A DNA stretch of 48,669 nt from a virus (taxonomy: Duplodnaviria; Caudoviricetes). The notes below the pieces were generated by a model. It made no database searches and was not told the origin of the DNA. It worked only from the letters and a program-made list of their open reading frames with translations. Positions within the stretch are counted from its first letter, which is position 1; every line of letters starts with the position of its first letter. Location: IMG/VR virus record IMGVR_UViG_3300033412_000368, positions 1 to 48,669 of that record; one strand, written 5' to 3'. Below are positions 9,615-48,669 of the stretch, piece by piece. A program made the translations under genes and the position numbers.

Positions 9615-11528
9615 ATGAGGTCATTAAAAGGTCTGAAGGTTAAATATAATGTAGAAAAACCCCCTATTATCGGGATAGAAGAATATATTAAATTATTAAA
9701 TACGGACCCTGCTGTTCGTAGAACCCCATTTGAGAGAATGTTATCAGCCATTGGTGAGCCTGAAGTGATTGATACCTCTAAGAATGTTCGCTTATCAAGA
9801 ATTTTTGGGAATCGTCTTATTAAAAAATATAAACCTTTCAGTGAATTTTATGGGATGGAAGAAGTTGTTGAGAGAATTGTTTCTTATTTTAAATTTGCAG
9901 CCCAGGGTCTTGAAGAATCTAGGCAAATTTTATATTTATTAGGTCCAGTGGGAGGGGGAAAATCTTCAATTGCTGAAAAATTAAAAGAATTAATAGCAAA
10001 AGAACCAGTTTATGTATTAACAGACGAAAATGGTCAAATCTCTCCTGTGTTTGAGACTCCTTTATCTCTTTTATCACCAGAAGATTTTCCAGAAATACCG
10101 AAACGGTATTTTAAGTATCAATTATCACCATGGGGAATTAAAAGATTAGAGGAGTATAATGGTGATATATCACGTTTTAAAGTAGCAAAATTATTTCCTA
10201 ATGAATCAAAACAATATTGTATTAGCAAAACTGAGCCAGGAGATGATAATAATCAAGATATATCAGCCTTAGTTGGAAAGACTAATATTAGAAAATTAGA
10301 ATATTTTGATCAGAATGACCCAGATAGTTATTCTTATAGTGGGGGTCTCAATAAATCAAATCAAGGATTATTAGAGTTTGTTGAAATGTTTAAATCACCA
10401 ATAAAAATCTTACATCCTTTACTGACCGCAACACAGGAAGGAGATTATAATTCAACAGAAGGAATGGCTTCTCTCCCCTTTGAAGGTATAATTTTAGCCC
10501 ATTCCAATGAATCGGAGTGGAATTCTTTTAAAAATGATAATAAAAATGAAGCATTTATAGATAGAGTGTATGTAGTAAAGGTTCCTTATTGTTTACGTGT
10601 TGATGATGAGGTTAAAATTTATGAGAAATTAATAAAAAATTCAGATCTTTGTGACAAACCAATTGCACCTAATACTTTAGATTTACTAGCTAAATTGTTT
10701 ATTTTGACTCGTTTAGAAGAGCCTAAGACTTCAAATATTTTTACAAAATTAAAAGTATATAATGGTGAATCTGTTAAAGAAAAAGATCCATCGGCAAAAT
10801 CCCTTTATGATTATAAAATGCTTAGTTCTAAATTAGAGGGGTTTCGAGGATTGTCAACTCGTCTTGCCCACAAGGTTATTTCGCAAACATATAATTATGA
10901 TACGATGGAAATTGCAGCCAATCCTGTTCATTTATTTATTGTTATTGAACAAATGATTTATAATGAGCATTTAAATGAAAATGATGAATTACGATTTATG
11001 GGATATTTAAATGAATATCTAATTCTTCCATATATTGACTTAATCGGTGATGAGATTCAAAAATGCTATTTAGATAGTTATTCTGAATATGGTCAAAATT
11101 TATTTGATCGTTATATTACTTATGCGGATTACTGGCTTCAAGATCAAGATTATAGAGATCCCGATACTGGGCAATTATTTGACAGAGGAATTCTTTCTTC
11201 AGAATTAGAAAAATTAGAAATACCAGCAGAAATAACTAATAAAAAAGATTTTAGAAATGAGGTAGTTAATTTTTGTTTGCATTATAAAGCTGATCATGGT
11301 GTCTATCCCGATTGGACCTCCTATTCTAAATTAAAATTAGTGATAGAAAAATCAATTTTTGATAAAACAGAAAATTTATTACCAATAATTTCATTTCATA
11401 GTCATAAAAATAAAGATGATTCTAAAAAGCATGTTGATTTTATTAATAGAATGAAGAAAAAGGGTTATACTGAAAAACAAATAAAATTATTGTGTGAATG
11501 GTTTATTCGTTATAAACAATCAGCTTAA
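9615..11528 (+). CDS. prkA: PrkA/YeaG family AAA+ protein (annotated as a Ser kinase)
   Basis: LYLLGPVGGGKSS, KTEPGDDNNQDISALVGK, LLEFVEMFK, LHPLLTATQEG, AHSNESEW; full length; AAGGAGG RBS. Confidence 0.95.
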   Translation: MRSLKGLKVKYNVEKPPIIGIEEYIKLLNTDPAVRRTPFERMLSAIGEPEVIDTSKNVRLSRIFGNRLIKKYKPFSEFYGMEEVVERIVSYFKFAAQGLEESRQILYLLGPVGGGKSSIAEKLKELIAKEPVYVLTDENGQISPVFETPLSLLSPEDFPEIPKRYFKYQLSPWGIKRLEEYNGDISRFKVAKLFPNESKQYCISKTEPGDDNNQDISALVGKTNIRKLEYFDQNDPDSYSYSGGLNKSNQGLLEFVEMFKSPIKILHPLLTATQEGDYNSTEGMASLPFEGIILAHSNESEWNSFKNDNKNEAFIDRVYVVKVPYCLRVDDEVKIYEKLIKNSDLCDKPIAPNTLDLLAKLFILTRLEEPKTSNIFTKLKVYNGESVKEKDPSAKSLYDYKMLSSKLEGFRGLSTRLAHKVISQTYNYDTMEIAANPVHLFIVIEQMIYNEHLNENDELRFMGYLNEYLILPYIDLIGDEIQKCYLDSYSEYGQNLFDRYITYADYWLQDQDYRDPDTGQLFDRGILSSELEKLEIPAEITNKKDFRNEVVNFCLHYKADHGVYPDWTSYSKLKLVIEKSIFDKTENLLPIISFHSHKNKDDSKKHVDFINRMKKKGYTEKQIKLLCEWFIRYKQSA

Positions 11529-13256: not shown

Positions 13257-14411
13257 ATGACTATTATAATCGATCGGAGGAATACCCGCTCATCAAAAAA
13301 TTGTTCTAATCGGACTCGTTTTATTCATCGATATAAAAATTATATAAAGAAAACTTTAGATGATTGTGTTGAAAAAAAGAAAATTAAAGATTTAACTGAT
13401 TCAGTAGCTATCCCAATTAATTGGGATATTCGAGATATAGATATGGGATTTAATAGATCAACGGGAACTTATGATTATATCGGAACTGGGAATAAAGAGT
13501 ATGAGAAAGGGGATCGATTCTATAAAGATAATGATAATCCAGAGTCTTCAATTTATGAGGATGAGGAATCTGACCAGGGAGATTATACTTTTACTTTAAC
13601 TAAAGAAGAATTCTTTGATCTCTATTTCGATGATATGGAACTTCCAGATTTTATTAAAACTTCCATGATGAATATTTGTAAATCCTCTTATAAACGTGCA
13701 GGTTATATAAAAAATGGGGTGATTTCGAGATTAGATATTCTTAAAACATTACAAATGTCGCTTGCTAGACGATTGTCATGCCCTAAAGATAAAAACCCCC
13801 CTTTTTTAGATGATATTGATCTTCGTTTTAAGAATATTATTTCTGTTCCTCAACCAATGTTAAAAGCAGTTATGTTCTGTATGATGGATGTATCTGGATC
13901 AATGACTGAACATCATAGTTATTTATCAAAGAAATTTTTTATATTATTATATTTATTTCTTTGTAAAAATTATACTTCAGTTGATATTCGTTTTATTCGT
14001 TATCATCATAGTGCCAAGGATGTTTCGGAAGAAGAATTTTTCAATTCCCATCAAACAGGGGGAACACAGGTATTACCCGCTTTGCAATTAATTAATGAGA
14101 TTATAAAGAATGAATATTCAATAAATACATATAATATTTATATTGCTCATACGAGTGATGGAGATATTGGGAACTTGGATGATACTCTTATTGAGTATTT
14201 AGATCATAATTTAATTAATAAATTGCAATATTATGCTTATCTTCAAGTTCAAGATGCTTATCAATATGGAGATTTTAAAGAGGGGAATGAGGGGCTTTAT
14301 GGTATTTTGAAAAGTTCTTCTTATTGGATGACAAAATTAAATATTGAAACGGCTGTTGATTTACAAGATATTTTCCCAGTTTTAAAAAATTTATTTAAGA
14401 GGAATAAATAA
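13257..14411 (+). CDS. yeaH: YeaH/YhbH (DUF444) VWA-domain protein
   Basis: IIDRR..NR.RFI.RYK, PFLDDIDLRF, KAVMFCMMDVSGSM (MIDAS), TGGT, SDGD. Confidence 0.92.
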   Translation: MTIIIDRRNTRSSKNCSNRTRFIHRYKNYIKKTLDDCVEKKKIKDLTDSVAIPINWDIRDIDMGFNRSTGTYDYIGTGNKEYEKGDRFYKDNDNPESSIYEDEESDQGDYTFTLTKEEFFDLYFDDMELPDFIKTSMMNICKSSYKRAGYIKNGVISRLDILKTLQMSLARRLSCPKDKNPPFLDDIDLRFKNIISVPQPMLKAVMFCMMDVSGSMTEHHSYLSKKFFILLYLFLCKNYTSVDIRFIRYHHSAKDVSEEEFFNSHQTGGTQVLPALQLINEIIKNEYSINTYNIYIAHTSDGDIGNLDDTLIEYLDHNLINKLQYYAYLQVQDAYQYGDFKEGNEGLYGILKSSSYWMTKLNIETAVDLQDIFPVLKNLFKRNK

Positions 14412-15417: not shown

Positions 15418-16851
15418 ATGCAAAATCCTCTTTTTATTGGATATGACTGGGATATAAATTTAATTGAAAAATTATGGAAAAGAATTGATTTTTATGGAAA
15501 AAAAATGGGGTTGGATTATTACCCCCCTAAATTTGAAGTTATAACATCAGAACAAATGATAGATGCCTATTCTAGCAATGGAATGCCAATTTATTATAAT
15601 CATTGGTCATTTGGTAAAAATTTTATTAAGACTATGGATAATTATAAAAAGGGAAAAATGGGGTTGGCTTATGAAATGGTTATTAATTCTAATCCTTGTT
15701 TGGCGTATCTAATGGAGGATAATACGGCAACATTAACTGCTATGGTAATTTCTCATGCTAGTTGTGGGCATTCTCATTTTTTCAAAAATAATTATTTATT
15801 TAAAAAAAATACTAACCCAGAGTCAATAATTAATTTATTAGAGTCAACTAAAAAATATATCCTTAAATGTGAAGAACAGTATGGGTTTGAGAGAGTTGAA
15901 AATCTTATTAGTTGTATTCATTTTTTATCTAAATTTGGAATAAATAAATATCCTCGATGTAATAAAACTAATGATAAATTAATTAGAGAACGAGAAGAAT
16001 ATTATAGACAGAGTTATGATCCTATTATCAACAATCATCTTTTTTCATTAAATAATCAGGATATTAAAAAAGAAAATAATTTATTGATTGAAAATATAGA
16101 CGAAGAAAATTTAATAAAGTTTATAATTGATCATTCTTTAAGTTTAGAGATTTGGCAGAAAAATATTCTTAATTTAATAATGAGTATTGAACAATATTTT
16201 TATCCGCAGAGTCAAACTAAAATAATGAATGAAGGATTTGCTTGTTTTATTCATTATCACATAATGGAGGAACTTTATAAAAACGGTGATATTGATGAAG
16301 GGTCCTACATTGAATTTATTAAACATCACACTGATGTTTGTTATCAACCTGAATTAACCTCTATTAACCCTTATGCCTTAGGATTTGAAATTTTTATGGA
16401 TATTAAACGCTCTTGTTTATATCCCGATGAGGAAGATTATATTCATCTATCAACATCAGGGAGTAAAGATTGGATGGTTGAAATTAAAAATGTTGTGAAG
16501 TATTATAAAGATGAGAGTTTTATTACTCAATTTTTATCACCAAAAGTAATAAGAAAATTGGGATTATTCTCATATCACGATTCTAGTGAGTTTCCTTATG
16601 TTGAAATTACTGGTACCCAAGATGATTGTGATATTATGACAATAAGAGAACAATTGTGCAATTATTTGAAAAGAGAGAATTTTATACCTGATTTAGAAAT
16701 TATTTCTTTTAATAAAGTAAATAATCGTGTTATTATTAAGTATAATAAATTTAAAAATAGAGAAATTTATAATTTTGATATTTTTGAAGAAGTTTTTAAT
16801 GAACTAACAGGTTTAACTGTTAATTTAGAGGAGAGTGAGAATGGCTTATAA
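15418..16851 (+). CDS. spoVR: SpoVR/YcgB family protein
   Basis: GMPIYYNHWSFGK, GLAYEMVINSNPCLAYLMEDN, HASCGHSHFFKNNYLF, QTKIMNEGFA, INPYALGF, DESFITQFLSPK. Confidence 0.93.
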   Translation: MQNPLFIGYDWDINLIEKLWKRIDFYGKKMGLDYYPPKFEVITSEQMIDAYSSNGMPIYYNHWSFGKNFIKTMDNYKKGKMGLAYEMVINSNPCLAYLMEDNTATLTAMVISHASCGHSHFFKNNYLFKKNTNPESIINLLESTKKYILKCEEQYGFERVENLISCIHFLSKFGINKYPRCNKTNDKLIREREEYYRQSYDPIINNHLFSLNNQDIKKENNLLIENIDEENLIKFIIDHSLSLEIWQKNILNLIMSIEQYFYPQSQTKIMNEGFACFIHYHIMEELYKNGDIDEGSYIEFIKHHTDVCYQPELTSINPYALGFEIFMDIKRSCLYPDEEDYIHLSTSGSKDWMVEIKNVVKYYKDESFITQFLSPKVIRKLGLFSYHDSSEFPYVEITGTQDDCDIMTIREQLCNYLKRENFIPDLEIISFNKVNNRVIIKYNKFKNREIYNFDIFEEVFNELTGLTVNLEESENGL

Positions 16852-20789: not shown

Positions 20790-21485
20790 ATGGGGATATT
20801 TTCTAATATAATTGACTTTTTAAAATCAGTCACATTAAAAGATCAAATTAATCCGACTTTCATTTATAATGAGGTCAATGATATAAATGATAATTATCAA
20901 ATTGGTCTTTTAACTAAAAAGTATGAGTGTAGTAATAAGGGCCCTGGTTATATTTCTAATGGTTCTAAGTGGGGAGATCCGGGTGGTGATAGTTATGGGA
21001 GTTATCAATTAGAAACTAAAAAAGGTACTATGCAAGAATATTTAACAAGAGTGGATGATAAATTCACCGAGGCTTTACGAGCTTTGAAGATCAATAGTGA
21101 TTCCTTTAAATCAAAATGGAAAGATATTGCTTTAAAGGATCCTGTTGGGTTTGAACAATCACAATTTAATTATCTTGCTAATAAAAAAAATGGTTATTAT
21201 GATGGAATAAAATATGCCAAAAATCTTGGATGGAATACGGATAATTTAGCAATGAAATCGGCCATCTTCTCAGCGGTAAACCAATCTGGAGGATGGAAAA
21301 CATTTTTTGATAAGACAGGAATAATAAAAACAGATAGTTTAGATGTACAAATAAATAAATTATATGATGCCCGAGCCAATTATTTCAAAAAATTAAATTT
21401 GACAAAAAATGTAAAAGATTCTATTATTAAGAATAGAACTGTGGATGAAAGAAAAGATTGTTTAACATTAATAGGGAGAAAATAA
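20790..21485 (+). CDS. Putative endolysin (lysozyme-like, VgrG3-C-like muramidase)
   Basis: KYE.S..G...IS.G...GD.GG.SYG.YQL pattern; I..LYDAR..YF; GAGGAG RBS. Confidence 0.65.
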   Translation: MGIFSNIIDFLKSVTLKDQINPTFIYNEVNDINDNYQIGLLTKKYECSNKGPGYISNGSKWGDPGGDSYGSYQLETKKGTMQEYLTRVDDKFTEALRALKINSDSFKSKWKDIALKDPVGFEQSQFNYLANKKNGYYDGIKYAKNLGWNTDNLAMKSAIFSAVNQSGGWKTFFDKTGIIKTDSLDVQINKLYDARANYFKKLNLTKNVKDSIIKNRTVDERKDCLTLIGRK

Positions 21486-40203: not shown

Positions 40204-40949
40204 TATCTATTATCCAATTCCATTAACTTTTTAATATAATCATCAATTGAAATCCCACGAGTCTTCAGTAAATTTCTCGCACAATTTTTTTGATATTCAT
40301 CCAAATCATCAAAGGTGATTTTCTTCTTATGTGATGATTTAATCGCGCTTTGTTGTTTTCCCTCGACCGCATTAATAATTGGATCAGGATCCACTTTAAA
40401 ATAATCTGGATACTTACCTTTCATGAACTCTTCCAATTTTTCAAAATGTTTATCAGGGGGTAATCTCTCTTCAATTAACTCTTTATCTCGTGATTTACAA
40501 ACCAATTGCATTTCTTGATCACGATAAGAAGTACCATTAAACCAAGCTTGATGTTTCATAATGAATGCGTCTGCATGTTCCTTCACACTTGGATCAAGTA
40601 ACTGTCTTGTTTGATCTTCTATTTGTTTGACTCTTTCTACATCTGCCAATTCAATGGCTTCAATTCTTTTTGCTTCTAATTCTGCCTTTGCACGAGCATA
40701 AATATCTTGCTCTTGTCTGGCTAATTTATCTTTTAACCGTTCTACAGTCTGAAAAAGACTGTCTAATTTTTTATTCTTAACTTTAAATCCATTATCAATC
40801 CACTCTTCAGCTGATAATTCACCATCCGGTTTCCATCCATGCTCCAACATCTTTTTTTCAAAAGAAGATAAATTAGTGATATTATTTGATGATTCCTCTA
40901 ATTGAGCTGATGACTTTTCTTTCACCTCTAATTTATTTTCATTAGTCAT
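40203..40949 (-). CDS. Putative scaffolding protein
   Basis: Charged coiled coil with GWKP...AEEW and a C-terminal F.DL......Y.K; between portal and capsid genes. Confidence 0.65.
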   Translation of the reverse strand: MTNENKLEVKEKSSAQLEESSNNITNLSSFEKKMLEHGWKPDGELSAEEWIDNGFKVKNKKLDSLFQTVERLKDKLARQEQDIYARAKAELEAKRIEAIELADVERVKQIEDQTRQLLDPSVKEHADAFIMKHQAWFNGTSYRDQEMQLVCKSRDKELIEERLPPDKHFEKLEEFMKGKYPDYFKVDPDPIINAVEGKQQSAIKSSHKKKITFDDLDEYQKNCARNLLKTRGISIDDYIKKLMELDNR

Positions 40950-41320
40950 TATTCATCCTCCCAATGAACATAAACATCATGGTCAGAGATAACTCTATAA
41001 ATTTCTCCGTCCCCTATATCTGGAAGGGCTTCACCAGACCATCTACATATAGTAACTAAATCTCCAATTTCTACCCAATTATCACCACTTCCTAGACTTT
41101 TATAAGCATCTTTCCCAATTTGAACAACTCGTGCTTCTTGAGTTCCTAATTTAAGATTCTCAATTTGATCTTTAGTCAAGGATTGAATAACAAATCCGGT
41201 TTCCGAAACTTCATCATATTTACCAGTTTTAGAATTAAATTGATAATCTTTATCAATTAAATCTTTTTTTACCTTAACTAAGATTCGATCACCAAGTATA
41301 CGCGGTTTTCGTAATTTCAC
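40949..41320 (-). CDS. GroES-like co-chaperonin
   Basis: LGDRILVK, VVQIGKDAY, WVEIGDLV, YRVISD.D; GTG start at 41320. Confidence 0.75.
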   Translation of the reverse strand: MKLRKPRILGDRILVKVKKDLIDKDYQFNSKTGKYDEVSETGFVIQSLTKDQIENLKLGTQEARVVQIGKDAYKSLGSGDNWVEIGDLVTICRWSGEALPDIGDGEIYRVISDHDVYVHWEDE

Positions 41321-41588
41321 TCTTTTCTTCCTCTTCTTCAATAAACAACTTATCAAATGATAAATTTAAAAATTGGTCACACACTTCCATACTTCCTTTT
41401 ATATAGGCATATTTCTTTTCTAAATTTACATCATAAATAGGATCAAAGGATTTAATATCTTCTTCTAAAACCTTTTTATTTTCTTTAAAGATTAAATAAA
41501 TCTCAGTAGTTATTTTATTATTTAACCAATCTTTAAAATCTGATTCATCTAAATCAAACGATCGGGTTTTGTTTTTTCTCTTTTTCAT
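41289..41588 (-). CDS. Hypothetical protein
   Basis: Overlaps the end of the portal gene; F..W..N..T pattern. Confidence 0.6.
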   Translation of the reverse strand: MKKRKNKTRSFDLDESDFKDWLNNKITTEIYLIFKENKKVLEEDIKSFDPIYDVNLEKKYAYIKGSMEVCDQFLNLSFDKLFIEEEEEKSEITKTAYTW

Positions 41589-45582: not shown

Positions 45583-45855
45583 TTATAATTTTTCTAATTT
45601 TTTTAAAACTTCATCTACTTTTTGATCTAATGTATCTAAAACATCAGACATTTTATGATCTAAGCGATTTACAGTATCTTCTAAATAATCAATTCTTATA
45701 GAATGTTTATTAGAGTTTATTTTTAATTTACTGAGTGATATATCTGATTTCTCAATTTTATTAGATAAATTTTTATAGTGCCATCCTAGAAGATATGTAA
45801 TGGGGGCAATTAAAGCTAATAATATATTTTTAACTGTGAAATAGTCATTATCCAT
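45583..45855 (-). CDS. Small membrane-anchored coiled-coil protein
   Basis: N-terminal TM segment followed by heptad repeats. Confidence 0.6.
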   Translation of the reverse strand: MDNDYFTVKNILLALIAPITYLLGWHYKNLSNKIEKSDISLSKLKINSNKHSIRIDYLEDTVNRLDHKMSDVLDTLDQKVDEVLKKLEKL

Positions 45856-45883
45856 ATTTTCTTCTTATTATTTTAAAATCTAT

Positions 45884-46227
45884 GAGGAGATTCTATCTCC
45901 TCCGATCCCTATTACTACCGACCTTTCTCCAGGGAAACTAGTACAATTCTAATTGTAGTATACTCCCATTTCCACAGTACAATCATGGGTCTTATCTTAG
46001 ACGATAGAGATGTCCGATAAATGTAGACACATTTCAGGATAAGATGAATTCAATCTTAATTCCTTTACTCCTAGTCCTTCTCTATATATTATAGGCCTTT
46101 CGGAGATATTAACTCTGATAAGTGAGATCAGTTCTGCTTAGTCGTTGCAGCGGGCACCATCCCTAGTTAATTACCTTACGGCAAGTTTAGGACAACTTCC
46201 CCGTTATTCAGTCATTCTGTGTCTACA
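45884..46227 (-). ncRNA. Candidate structured ncRNA A (~345 nt)
   Basis: Starts just downstream of a promoter; 10-bp long-range stem 46218-46227/46022-46031; GNRA hairpin; terminal 8-bp hairpin 45884-45902; no ORF. Confidence 0.55.
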
Positions 46228-46232
46228 GTATT

Positions 46233-46261
46233 ATTGTAGACTATATAATCTAAATTGTCAA
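46233..46261 (-). promoter_or_regulatory. Sigma70 promoter
   Basis: TTGACA-17 nt-TACAAT. Confidence 0.75.
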
Positions 46262-46530
46262 GCAATATTTAATAAATTCTCTACAAAATTATCAATTTTA
46301 CAAATATTATTTTCATAATTAATTAATTCAATTTCTATTTTATGAGGATTTATTTTTAATTCCTCTAGAAAATTGATTAAAATCATATTAACATTTAATA
46401 TATTATCCATTTCATAAATCTTAAAATAACAATCATTATTATTGGAATAATAAAATCCATAAAATAATAAAAATTCATGTAACTTAATTGAAAGATTATT
46501 GGTAAATAATGATACCTTGATATTATTCAT
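46258..46530 (-). CDS. Hypothetical protein
   Basis: 90-aa very AT-rich ORF with a weak RBS. Confidence 0.4.
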   Translation of the reverse strand: MNNIKVSLFTNNLSIKLHEFLLFYGFYYSNNNDCYFKIYEMDNILNVNMILINFLEELKINPHKIEIELINYENNICKIDNFVENLLNIA

Positions 46531-46583
46531 TTGACTTCTCTAATTGTTTAGCAAAAATTATTCCCACAAAACCCTCTCTAATC

Positions 46584-47096
46584 TTAATTTCCATCTCTTT
46601 GCTTAAGAGCTTCTTCTAAAACATCAACTTGATCTTGAGTCATCCCAGATTTAAATATTTTCTGACGTAAAACAGAGAAAAATCTTTCATCGTTAGCGGG
46701 GCCGTATTTAGCCTGAGAATATGCACTCATTGTTTCTTTACCTAAATAACCACCTAATCCAACTGTCACCAGTGTCCAAAGCTCAGGAGGAACTGGGACA
46801 GATTCAATAGGTAATCCAAATGGTTTTAAAAAAGCATTCAAGAGAGATACTATGATCCAATTGTACCCTACTATAGCTATACATATCATCATTAAATATG
46901 AACGCCATTGAGAAGCAAAACCCCCATTGTTCATTTCTGTAGTTATAACATCTTTTTGAGCTTCTATTACTTTAGATGAAGCTTCATTAAGCGCTTTCTG
47001 TAATTCTAATTTAGCTTGATCTTGTTCTGCTTTATCAGGGAATATTTTTTCAATTAATTTACTGAATACTGGTATTAATGCTAATAATGCACCCAT
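46584..47096 (-). CDS. Holin-like protein (3TM, GTA-holin-like)
   Basis: LIEKIFPDK......K.EL, WR..L, LW.L...GLGGY; TM segments. Confidence 0.7.
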   Translation of the reverse strand: MGALLALIPVFSKLIEKIFPDKAEQDQAKLELQKALNEASSKVIEAQKDVITTEMNNGGFASQWRSYLMMICIAIVGYNWIIVSLLNAFLKPFGLPIESVPVPPELWTLVTVGLGGYLGKETMSAYSQAKYGPANDERFFSVLRQKIFKSGMTQDQVDVLEEALKQRDGN

Positions 47097-47131
47097 TTAA
47101 ATCTCTCTCTATTTAATATCTTTATAAAAAG

Positions 47132-47160
47132 ATTATATCAATTACTATCAACAGTGTCAA
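47132..47160 (-). promoter_or_regulatory. Consensus sigma70 promoter of the holin-like gene
   Basis: TTGACA-17 nt-TATAAT with an extended TG. Confidence 0.8.
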
Positions 47161-47177
47161 TATATTTAAGCAATATT

Positions 47178-47683
47178 GTATCAAGAGACGGGATACGAGC
47201 CTCTAGCTTGTTTAGATTGTTAATGTTTATTATTATTTACTTTATACTGTTTAATGTATATTGATATTAACAATCTAGTAGGGATTATAGCAATCAACTA
47301 CTACTTAATAAAAGTAAAACATTAGATAACTTATCAGTGCACTTTCCATCCATAGTTAGCATTAGTGCCAGATGCCGCCTCAGTTAAACTGAATTAACTC
47401 GTATATCCACTGTTTGAACTGTTAAATTAAGCATAACAGTTAACTGCGTCTCTAAACAGCTTACCTAATGAGTTTCTGTAATTCTGTAATTACCCCTTTC
47501 GGGGACGGTAGCTTACAGTGCTACCGGGCTATTTTATTGTTGATTTCTCGATTGAGGAGCTTACTCTCAATACTACAATAGGTCTTAAATAGCCAACCTT
47601 TACTATTTCCGATTATTATTTAGAGACGTTAAGGATATTCAGCAAATCATTCGTCTTCCTTCATTGAGAAAGCAAGTTTTCTT
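47178..47683 (-). ncRNA. Candidate structured ncRNA B (~500 nt)
   Basis: TGATATAAT at 47690-47698; several nested stems; CCCC-GAAA-GGGG hairpin; no ORF. Confidence 0.55.
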
Positions 47684-47714
47684 AAATCTATTATATCAGA
47701 AATCTTTTTGAATT

Positions 47715-47739
47715 AAAAGAGGGGTACGAATGACCCCTC
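47715..47739 (-). terminator. Intrinsic terminator
   Basis: GAGGGGT-7 nt-ACCCCTC-TTTT on the - strand. Confidence 0.7.
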
Positions 47740-47826
47740 AAGGCTTTGGGATAAGAACCCTCCTTCATTATCCACTTATTCCCACTAACTTCGTTTTTAT
47801 AATTATTTTGAGTTAGTTCATCCAAC
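47715..47826 (-). ncRNA. Candidate sRNA C (~110 nt)
   Basis: Bounded by a consensus promoter and a terminator; two internal stems; no plausible ORF. Confidence 0.55.
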
Positions 47827-47832
47827 ATTTGT

Positions 47833-47861
47833 ATTATAGACTATATGTTTTTATTTGTCAA
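47833..47861 (-). promoter_or_regulatory. Consensus sigma70 promoter
   Basis: TTGACA-17 nt-TATAAT; shares ATATAGTCTA(T/C)AAT with the promoter at 46233-46261. Confidence 0.8.
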
Positions 47862-48443
47862 GTATTTCATTAAAATTTTTTATTTATATAAATATTACTG
47901 TTGTGGCAGTATATTAAATAACTTTTATTTGTTTATTTAATACTTTTATTATTATTCAATAATAATTTCTATTATAGCAGTAAATTTTTATAAATATCAC
48001 TGCGAGGGTTGCGGCTGTCCATAAAGACAAAGAGCCTCCCGAGCGCAACTAAATAATTAAATTATATCATATATTTATATTTTGGCTCAGATATATAAGT
48101 AGTTACATACCCACTCCCACTATACCCGTTTATAAAATAGGGTCATGGGGCTTAAATAATTTGGACTTAATACCCCTTAGTATAGTATCTAGTCTTTTTC
48201 ATTAGTTATTTCTAAATCCTATAAGCCTAGAAGCAACGATCATTATATAGGTAATACCATAGTAGTGGGTTAAATATGATCGTTTAATACTGATAAACCA
48301 TGGAGCTATTAGATCATAATAAAACTTGGTGCGTTATAACCATGTAATAGATATGGAGTTGGGTACATGAATCCAACTTAATAATAACATCCGAAAATAG
48401 ATTATGATCTTAACAACATATATTTTATATATTACGATATTAA

Positions 48444-48472
48444 TTGACACAATAATAATTATCATATATAGT
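48444..48472 (+). promoter_or_regulatory. Sigma70 promoter pointing across the window end toward the early genes
   Basis: TTGACA-17 nt-TATAGT. Confidence 0.65.
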
Positions 48473-48630
48473 AATTATATTAAATGATAAATATTTATAA
48501 ATATTTCAAAGAATTATGGCTATAGAACTTGCATTCCATTTTATACGAGACTATATTCCATATTAGACGATGCTAAAACATAAGCAGTCTATTTAATAAA
48601 TATGTATTAAAAACTATTAAGGGGTCTTAT

Positions 48631-48669
48631 ATGATAATATTGAAAATATTAGCACTTATTCCAGTGATT
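48631..48669 (+). CDS. 5' part of a small membrane protein running off the window end
   Basis: AAGGGG RBS, MIILKILALIPV... Confidence 0.45.
   Translation, partial: MIILKILALIPVI

Follow-up and report, generated by a model that had tools for sequence, protein, structure and literature searches.

What does a stretch of about 500 bases, lying without an open reading frame directly 5' of the holin gene, encode in a podovirus-like phage genome? This genome is the window, the whole 48,669-nucleotide stretch of DNA analysed here, in which replication genes occupy the plus strand and the minus strand carries the holin, terS, terL, portal, capsid and ejection genes; the stretch sits in the non-coding region of the early/late divergence. 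We suggest that it is likely an uncatalogued structured phage RNA made late in infection, with a function that we infer. It is referred to below as RNA B.

Genomic setting and boundaries of RNA B

The window genome is probably complete and permuted, despite a CheckV completeness estimate of 22%, because an identical contig joins its end to its start and three DNA runs, all identical to the window with zero variants and perhaps its source, span the end. A second non-coding stretch of ~940 bp occupies 47862-48669 plus 1-123. Neither a tRNA nor a tmRNA was found in the window, and the search of the genome for a 14-nt antisense target of RNA B returned nothing except one AT-rich match.

Some other genes of the phage are of note. 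Homologues of PrkA/YeaG, DUF444 (YeaH) and SpoVR are encoded on the plus strand at 9615-11528, 13257-14411 and 15418-16851, a trio of the bacterial stress/sporulation type. Eight ORFs between 1044 and 19452 (plus strand), interleaved with the replication genes, match one and the same set of repeat-protein families (pentapeptide repeat in the one case checked), and the DNA repeats they share are long, with 77-93% identity. A GroES-like co-chaperonin (40949-41356, minus strand) is located within the head module, and the ORF at 20790-21485 (plus strand) has a VgrG3-like C-terminal domain and is possibly an endolysin.

The features are collected in Table 1. The promoters on either side, together with a 6-bp terminal helix UUAAGA/UCUUGA that is predicted with p 0.53, were used to place the ends of RNA B. 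The extended -10 element and the absence of ORFs, both described in an earlier note made from the sequence alone, are confirmed, the longest minus-strand stop-free run in 47151-47720 being 32 codons. The motif TGnTATAAT occurs at nine sites in the genome, and the copy before RNA B is without a good -35; at the same place the homologous contig L011, described below, has TTGACA-18-TG-TATAAT. Read-through of the terminator-like hairpin further upstream would transcribe RNA B too. In neither the window nor L011 did the search detect a terminator-like site at the 3' boundary of RNA B, so its transcript may continue into the holin gene. Just 5' of RNA B, a perfect promoter match and the terminator-like hairpin delimit a candidate ~110-nt transcript (47712-47826, minus strand), the promoter region of which is repeated at 46225-46262.

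Table 1. Positions of the features around RNA B in the window, and of gene-free stretches in related contigs
Feature	Position	Strand	Remark
sigma70-type promoter, upstream of unit	47833..47861	-	TTGACA-17-TATAAT, 12/12
intrinsic-terminator-like hairpin	47712..47739	-	~90 nt past the 47833..47861 promoter; also given as 47739-47719
extended -10 TGATATAAT	47690..47698	-	candidate promoter of RNA B
candidate ncRNA B	47180..47684	-	~500 nt
core hairpin	47625..47655	-	GACG/CGUC stem, AAU/CUUAA internal loop, GAU/AUC inner stem
conserved word AAUCGGAA	47607..47614	-	common to window, L011, L250
10-bp stem	47628-47619/47456-47447	-	perfect complement
rival strand	47447..47458	-	pairs with 47628-47617, 12 bp with G-U
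8-bp stem	47594-47587/47534-47527	-	perfect complement
AUUGAG/CUCAAU	AUUGAG 47571, CUCAAU 47556	-	local hairpin
GGUAGC/GCUACC (extended CGGUAGC/GCUACCG)	47525-47507	-	local hairpin
CCCC-GAAA-GGGG	47504-47493	-	local hairpin
AACUGUUA/UAACAGUU hairpin	47417..47441	-	CUUAAU loop, then CAAACAG; present in sequence
12-bp AU-rich 3' helix	47277-47266/47224-47213 (within 47213..47277)	-	perfect complement
perfect promoter match between RNA B and holin	47132..47160	-	counterpart in L011, 5996-6024
3TM holin (PF11351)	46584..47096	-	first gene of late block
manA-like RNA (RF01745)	46030..46241	-	51.5 bits, below gathering 55.2; E 1.4e-11
gene-free well-folding stretches	L007:445-795, L009:640-968, L010:790-1095, L013:2525-3068, L088:835-1057, L011:6489-6870		without Rfam match; z -2.4 to -7.1

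The conserved core and its homologues

A blastn comparison of 45851-48669 with 89 loci (three of them own copies) gave one non-self match inside RNA B, in L011 (E 0.022). The terL of L011 is 52% identical to that of the window, and the core lies 2.5 kb upstream of terL in both, so that the position is syntenic. The order in L011 is promoter, ~560-nt gap, second perfect promoter, PF11351 holin, second gap, small ORF, terS, ORF and terL, and its first gap folds at z -3.43. The core reads, 5' to 3', GACG-AAU-GAU-loop-AUC-CUUAA-CGUC. For a 20-base core pattern, the 945 kb searched should contain 3e-5 chance occurrences, but the pattern was derived from the L011 match itself. With this pattern L250 was retrieved, which carries the exact word AAUCGGAA although the word is not in the pattern (chance ~8e-4 per match).

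In L250 the outer stem of the core is 3 bp longer, the inner stem has 4 bp, and the gap (~400 nt) folds at z -4.08. After this gap come tRNA-Thr, tRNA-Ile and a putative terS gene; the labels terS and terL in this contig are our own reading, with Pfam giving a weak DUF5681 only. By eye, no consensus promoter stands directly upstream of the L250 core. The same contig has upstream repeats at 841-890, which we take to be Fur-box-like, and its tRNA-Ile (1856-1947) has the rare TAT anticodon. A further match, L253:1870-2230, retains the outer and inner stems, with two mismatches in AAUCGGAA and a core pairing p~0; it was kept for training of the covariance model R1 and is not counted as a family member. 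It follows a 14-nt direct repeat and precedes an IS-like ORF, outside an evident phage context.

Hence, the core sequence, its variable spacing and its location before holin or tRNA/terminase genes are common to three phage sequences. The conserved 5' parts follow in the order of a sequence-variable upstream hairpin, the core, an A-rich linker, an optional hairpin and AAUCGGAA. Loop length and the distance from core to AAUCGGAA (10 nt in the window, 28 nt in L011, 44 nt in L250) differ with inserted hairpins. Each body after AAUCGGAA is a series of hairpins, and the three bodies do not align with one another (pairwise z 0.2, 0.2 and -0.2). The conservation seen is that of the core with AAUCGGAA, rather than of a ~500-nt fold.

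In the covariation analysis suggested in the earlier note, pairing of the core is kept in 32 of 32 cells, with one pair changed on both sides (the outer A-U to U-A) and one on one side (the inner U-A to U-G), while the covariation itself is not significant (84/500 shuffles as high, n=3-4); most paired positions are invariant, and in L250 and L253 they are fixed by the search pattern. The inner-stem variation and the inserted hairpins fit an RNA better than a DNA site. This bears on a further explanation, that of a packaging, origin or late-activator site acting at the DNA level, or of a pRNA-like packaging RNA. The proximity to terS/terL and to the early/late divergence in all three phages agrees with it. 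However, the distance between the conserved words differs by more than 30 nt among the phages, with hairpins inserted, as would not be expected of a site of fixed geometry, and the separate ~940-bp non-coding stretch could host origin or end functions. The known pRNA belongs to phi29-type motors, and the phages considered here use terS/terL motors. We consider such a site or packaging RNA very improbable. The feature itself is real, and RNA B and its homologues probably make up a small and new family of structured phage RNAs, as far as comparison of the three sequences can tell.

The core family is rare in the collections searched. The exact 20-base pattern returned two stretches from the viral collection, namely the window's own and L011, and nine from the metagenome collection, comprising the own copy, L250, the uncertain L253 and six that were rejected; five exact matches in GTDB all fall inside long stop-free frames and were rejected as well. 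Two relaxed viral patterns (39 and 19 matches) yielded no member beyond the window and the L011 contig. A third, scanned over 17 of 64 parts, gave at least 119 matches (an estimated 480), with no new member among the matches listed. Model R1, built from four training sequences, scores strongly on only those four among 96 sources and did not find the core in 58 of 59 phage records, of which many are terL relatives and some are unrelated or incomplete. L084 (R1 E 0.13) and L256 (R1 E 0.005, selected by pattern) were dropped as members. Matches of the RNA B, L011 and L250 stretches by blastn to named phages and plasmids were absent or at chance level. The strings of the core motif were not found in the full texts searched or in the searched part of the PMC10690425 supplement, a source that lists >10,000 viral RNA candidates; they could occur in the alignments of PMC10690425, in the PMC5737381 supplement or in the GOLLD alignment.

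Folding of the body and the competing helix

All the stems listed in the earlier note are present in the sequence. Perfect stems are mildly enriched relative to shuffles, with seven of at least 8 bp (shuffle mean 3.3; 4.5% of 200 shuffles reach seven), two of at least 10 bp (3% of 200 shuffles) and one of at least 12 bp (3%). The stretch folds modestly above chance: three minus-strand runs with slightly different ends gave MFE z of -1.86 (5/100 shuffles as good), -2.75 and -2.22. Folding energy neither proves structure nor assigns the strand, because the plus strand of the same stretch reaches -3.45 and the upstream neighbouring non-coding control -1.71/-2.23; a true ROOL RNA in the same folding test has a z of -1.23 only. 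The 8-bp stem is outcompeted by a local hairpin in the ensemble, and the local hairpins at 47493..47571 (minus strand) have no sequence counterparts in the homologues.

It could be argued that only the ~50-nt core is functional, as a small RNA or a processing or binding element, and that the other ~430 nt are an AT-rich spacer with incidental hairpins. The bodies that fail to align, the z of -0.82 for the 3' half of the window stretch and the stem counts at the 3-5% level are in agreement with this. Against it, each of the three gaps measures 400-560 nt, folding is well above chance in L011 and L250, and promoter matches flank the gap in two phages. We regard a bare core within a spacer as improbable.

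The core hairpin is predicted with p 0.93-0.96 in early window transcripts and 1.0 in L250. In the window its probability falls with transcript length from 0.96 at 70 nt to 0.85 at 230 nt and 0.00 at 310 nt, and in full-length folds it is 0.01 in the window and 0.04 in L011. A rival helix takes the 3' strand of the core hairpin and is predicted to displace the core in transcripts of at least ~310 nt. The window's rival helix is matched by 0 of 300 shuffles, whereas its equivalent is at chance in L011 (165/300) and L250 (92/300). The long-range stems of the earlier note do not hold as the conserved structure; its 10-bp stem competes with the core hairpin and has no above-chance counterpart in L011 or L250.

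The main rival explanation is that the stretch is a cis-acting leader of the late operon, in which the nascent core modifies RNA polymerase or gives way to the rival helix and so times holin and packaging expression. In put-like antitermination, a nascent hairpin modifies RNA polymerase. The core is always at the start of the late block and on the coding strand, no 3' terminator match follows it, and in the window it is predicted to form first and to be displaced afterwards by a 12-bp helix that no shuffle matches. The upstream promoter-terminator pair also resembles that of lambda pR'/tR'. However, a perfect promoter match of the holin's own lies 3' of the RNA in both the window and L011, the rival helix does not exceed chance in L011 or L250, and the downstream genes differ, being either the holin or tRNAs. 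We think a leader function unlikely.

We prefer, with a probability of about 0.55, the reading that RNA B is a stand-alone structured late ncRNA of a new rare phage family, the core of which binds a conserved host factor as a decoy or scaffold. Host sigma70 polymerase would transcribe RNA B where the late (lysis/packaging) region begins; ICP1 and GOLLD, as analogues, suggest that its late abundance might be high. The small 5' core would be the acting part, borne on an interchangeable multi-hairpin body. We suggest that the near-invariant core (the AAU/CUUAA loop and AAUCGGAA) docks a conserved host protein or RNA, so that RNA B may work as a decoy or scaffold, and that the body protects it from nucleases and perhaps makes contacts in multimers. 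The position and the conserved sequence are observed; transcription, abundance and binding are what we infer here.

Neighbouring candidate RNAs and comparison with known phage RNAs

RNA B is not the only candidate RNA of this region. A manA-like RNA lies 1 kb downstream of it, between the holin and terminase genes of this soil-associated phage, with its own promoter match (46261-46233) and a terminator-like site (45902-45884); it aligns with the S-CREM1 manA at z 6.5. The manA RNAs are reported to form closed oligomers and cages (bioRxiv 10.64898/2026.07.01.735769). Five relatives (L007, L009, L010, L013 and L088) have promoter-like sites and gaps of 220-540 nt (z -2.4 to -7.1) before a small ORF, which is shown to be a holin homologue for L088 only; the core is absent from all five gaps. 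The gap stretches of L009 and L010 are one family, and those of L088 and L013 have long closing helices. Since several relatives carry another structured RNA in the pre-holin slot, a general late-infection role of such RNAs is suggested.

Elements within the pre-holin gaps of L007 and L088 look like the CUUAAU-loop hairpin of RNA B (47441-47417), and two double changes are seen among them; this likeness is weak and was selected after the fact among 91 pairwise comparisons. Model R2 of this putative second module found only its three training sequences among 92 sources, 58 of 500 shuffles are as high, and the descriptor has background matches. The sharing of the module with L007 and L088 might be taken as a lead only. 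We think it unlikely that, in this podovirus group, the pre-lysis/packaging slot serves as a cassette of large structured RNAs with swappable modules, in which RNA B, as a new family, would grip a conserved host machine by its core, be fused to a second module shared with relatives and stand beside a manA-type cage RNA. If this cassette were true, a single phage would use two distinct assemblies made of RNA alone during late infection.

The earlier note had left a choice between a GOLLD/ROOL-type RNA and a new class. The latter is partly supported, by the core, its position in two other phage contigs and the matching promoter boundaries, and membership in ROOL failed. The Rfam search that the note proposed gave no Rfam 15 family at gathering score in the window. 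The best match within RNA B is RAGATH-12 (19.8 bits vs 75, E 0.82); group I/II introns, tmRNA, RNase P, riboswitches, OLE and HEARO are not matched, the gaps of L011, L250 and L253 have no Rfam match, and manA (RF01745) is matched by the neighbouring element and not by RNA B itself.

For ROOL (RF03087), neither G000 nor G001 had a match at E<=10, and the positive control, an L. salivarius plasmid, scored 130.4 bits. RNA B resembles ROOL, which averages 581 nt (PMC5737381), in its comparable length and phage context, with tRNAs in L250, a likeness that is not diagnostic; it differs by the lack of a covariance match, and ROOL junctions or pseudoknots were not evident in the three bodies, which do not align.

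Like GOLLD, RNA B is a large phage-borne RNA, adjacent to tRNAs in L250, with a conserved and a variable part. Unlike GOLLD, it and its homologues have 400-560 nt rather than the 700-830 nt of the two solved full-length GOLLD RNAs, and the conserved portion is a ~50-nt 5' core rather than a 3' domain. The GOLLD (RF02032) 3' domain had no match in the window, G001 or L250 (GOLLD-bearing control genomes found: 0/40, 0/4, 0/151, 0/5), which leans against such a domain in RNA B. A detached variant of the GOLLD 5' domain, with the manA-like neighbour replacing part of GOLLD, may still be considered, as GOLLD 5' regions are variable and tRNA-associated (PMC12286853, PMC12990946), L250 is tRNA-associated too, and short 5' words resemble the GOLLD env-38 construct by eye (PMC12286853 Supplementary Table 4). 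However, a three-word pattern gave 29 stretches with the hairpin context in the window's own copy only; by eye, the words are absent from L011 and L250; env-38 has neither the core nor AAUCGGAA; and the RF02032 match is absent. We give this variant hardly any credence.

Last, GOLLD, ROOL and the ICP1 RNA are abundant large phage ncRNAs, some of them cage-forming and none with a known function. In a further family whose very small core is invariant while the body can be replaced, the nucleotides worth mutating or using as bait are indicated, and this division of core and body therefore makes the question of function testable. In ICP1 the most abundant transcript (~800 nt) occupies a gap free of ORFs ahead of the lysis cluster (PMC7567579). 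It folds at z -3.08 and has no convincing Rfam family. Model R1, run with filters off, found no core in the ICP1 gap, and the pairwise z is not above 2.5. Unlike RNA B, the ICP1 RNA is longer, lacks the core and has a terminator-like 3' end (by eye). Like RNA B, it occupies an ORF-free gap between two sigma70-type promoter matches before lysis genes, as its layout appears by eye. Of the known systems, the pre-lysis RNA of ICP1 is the closest functional analogue of RNA B.
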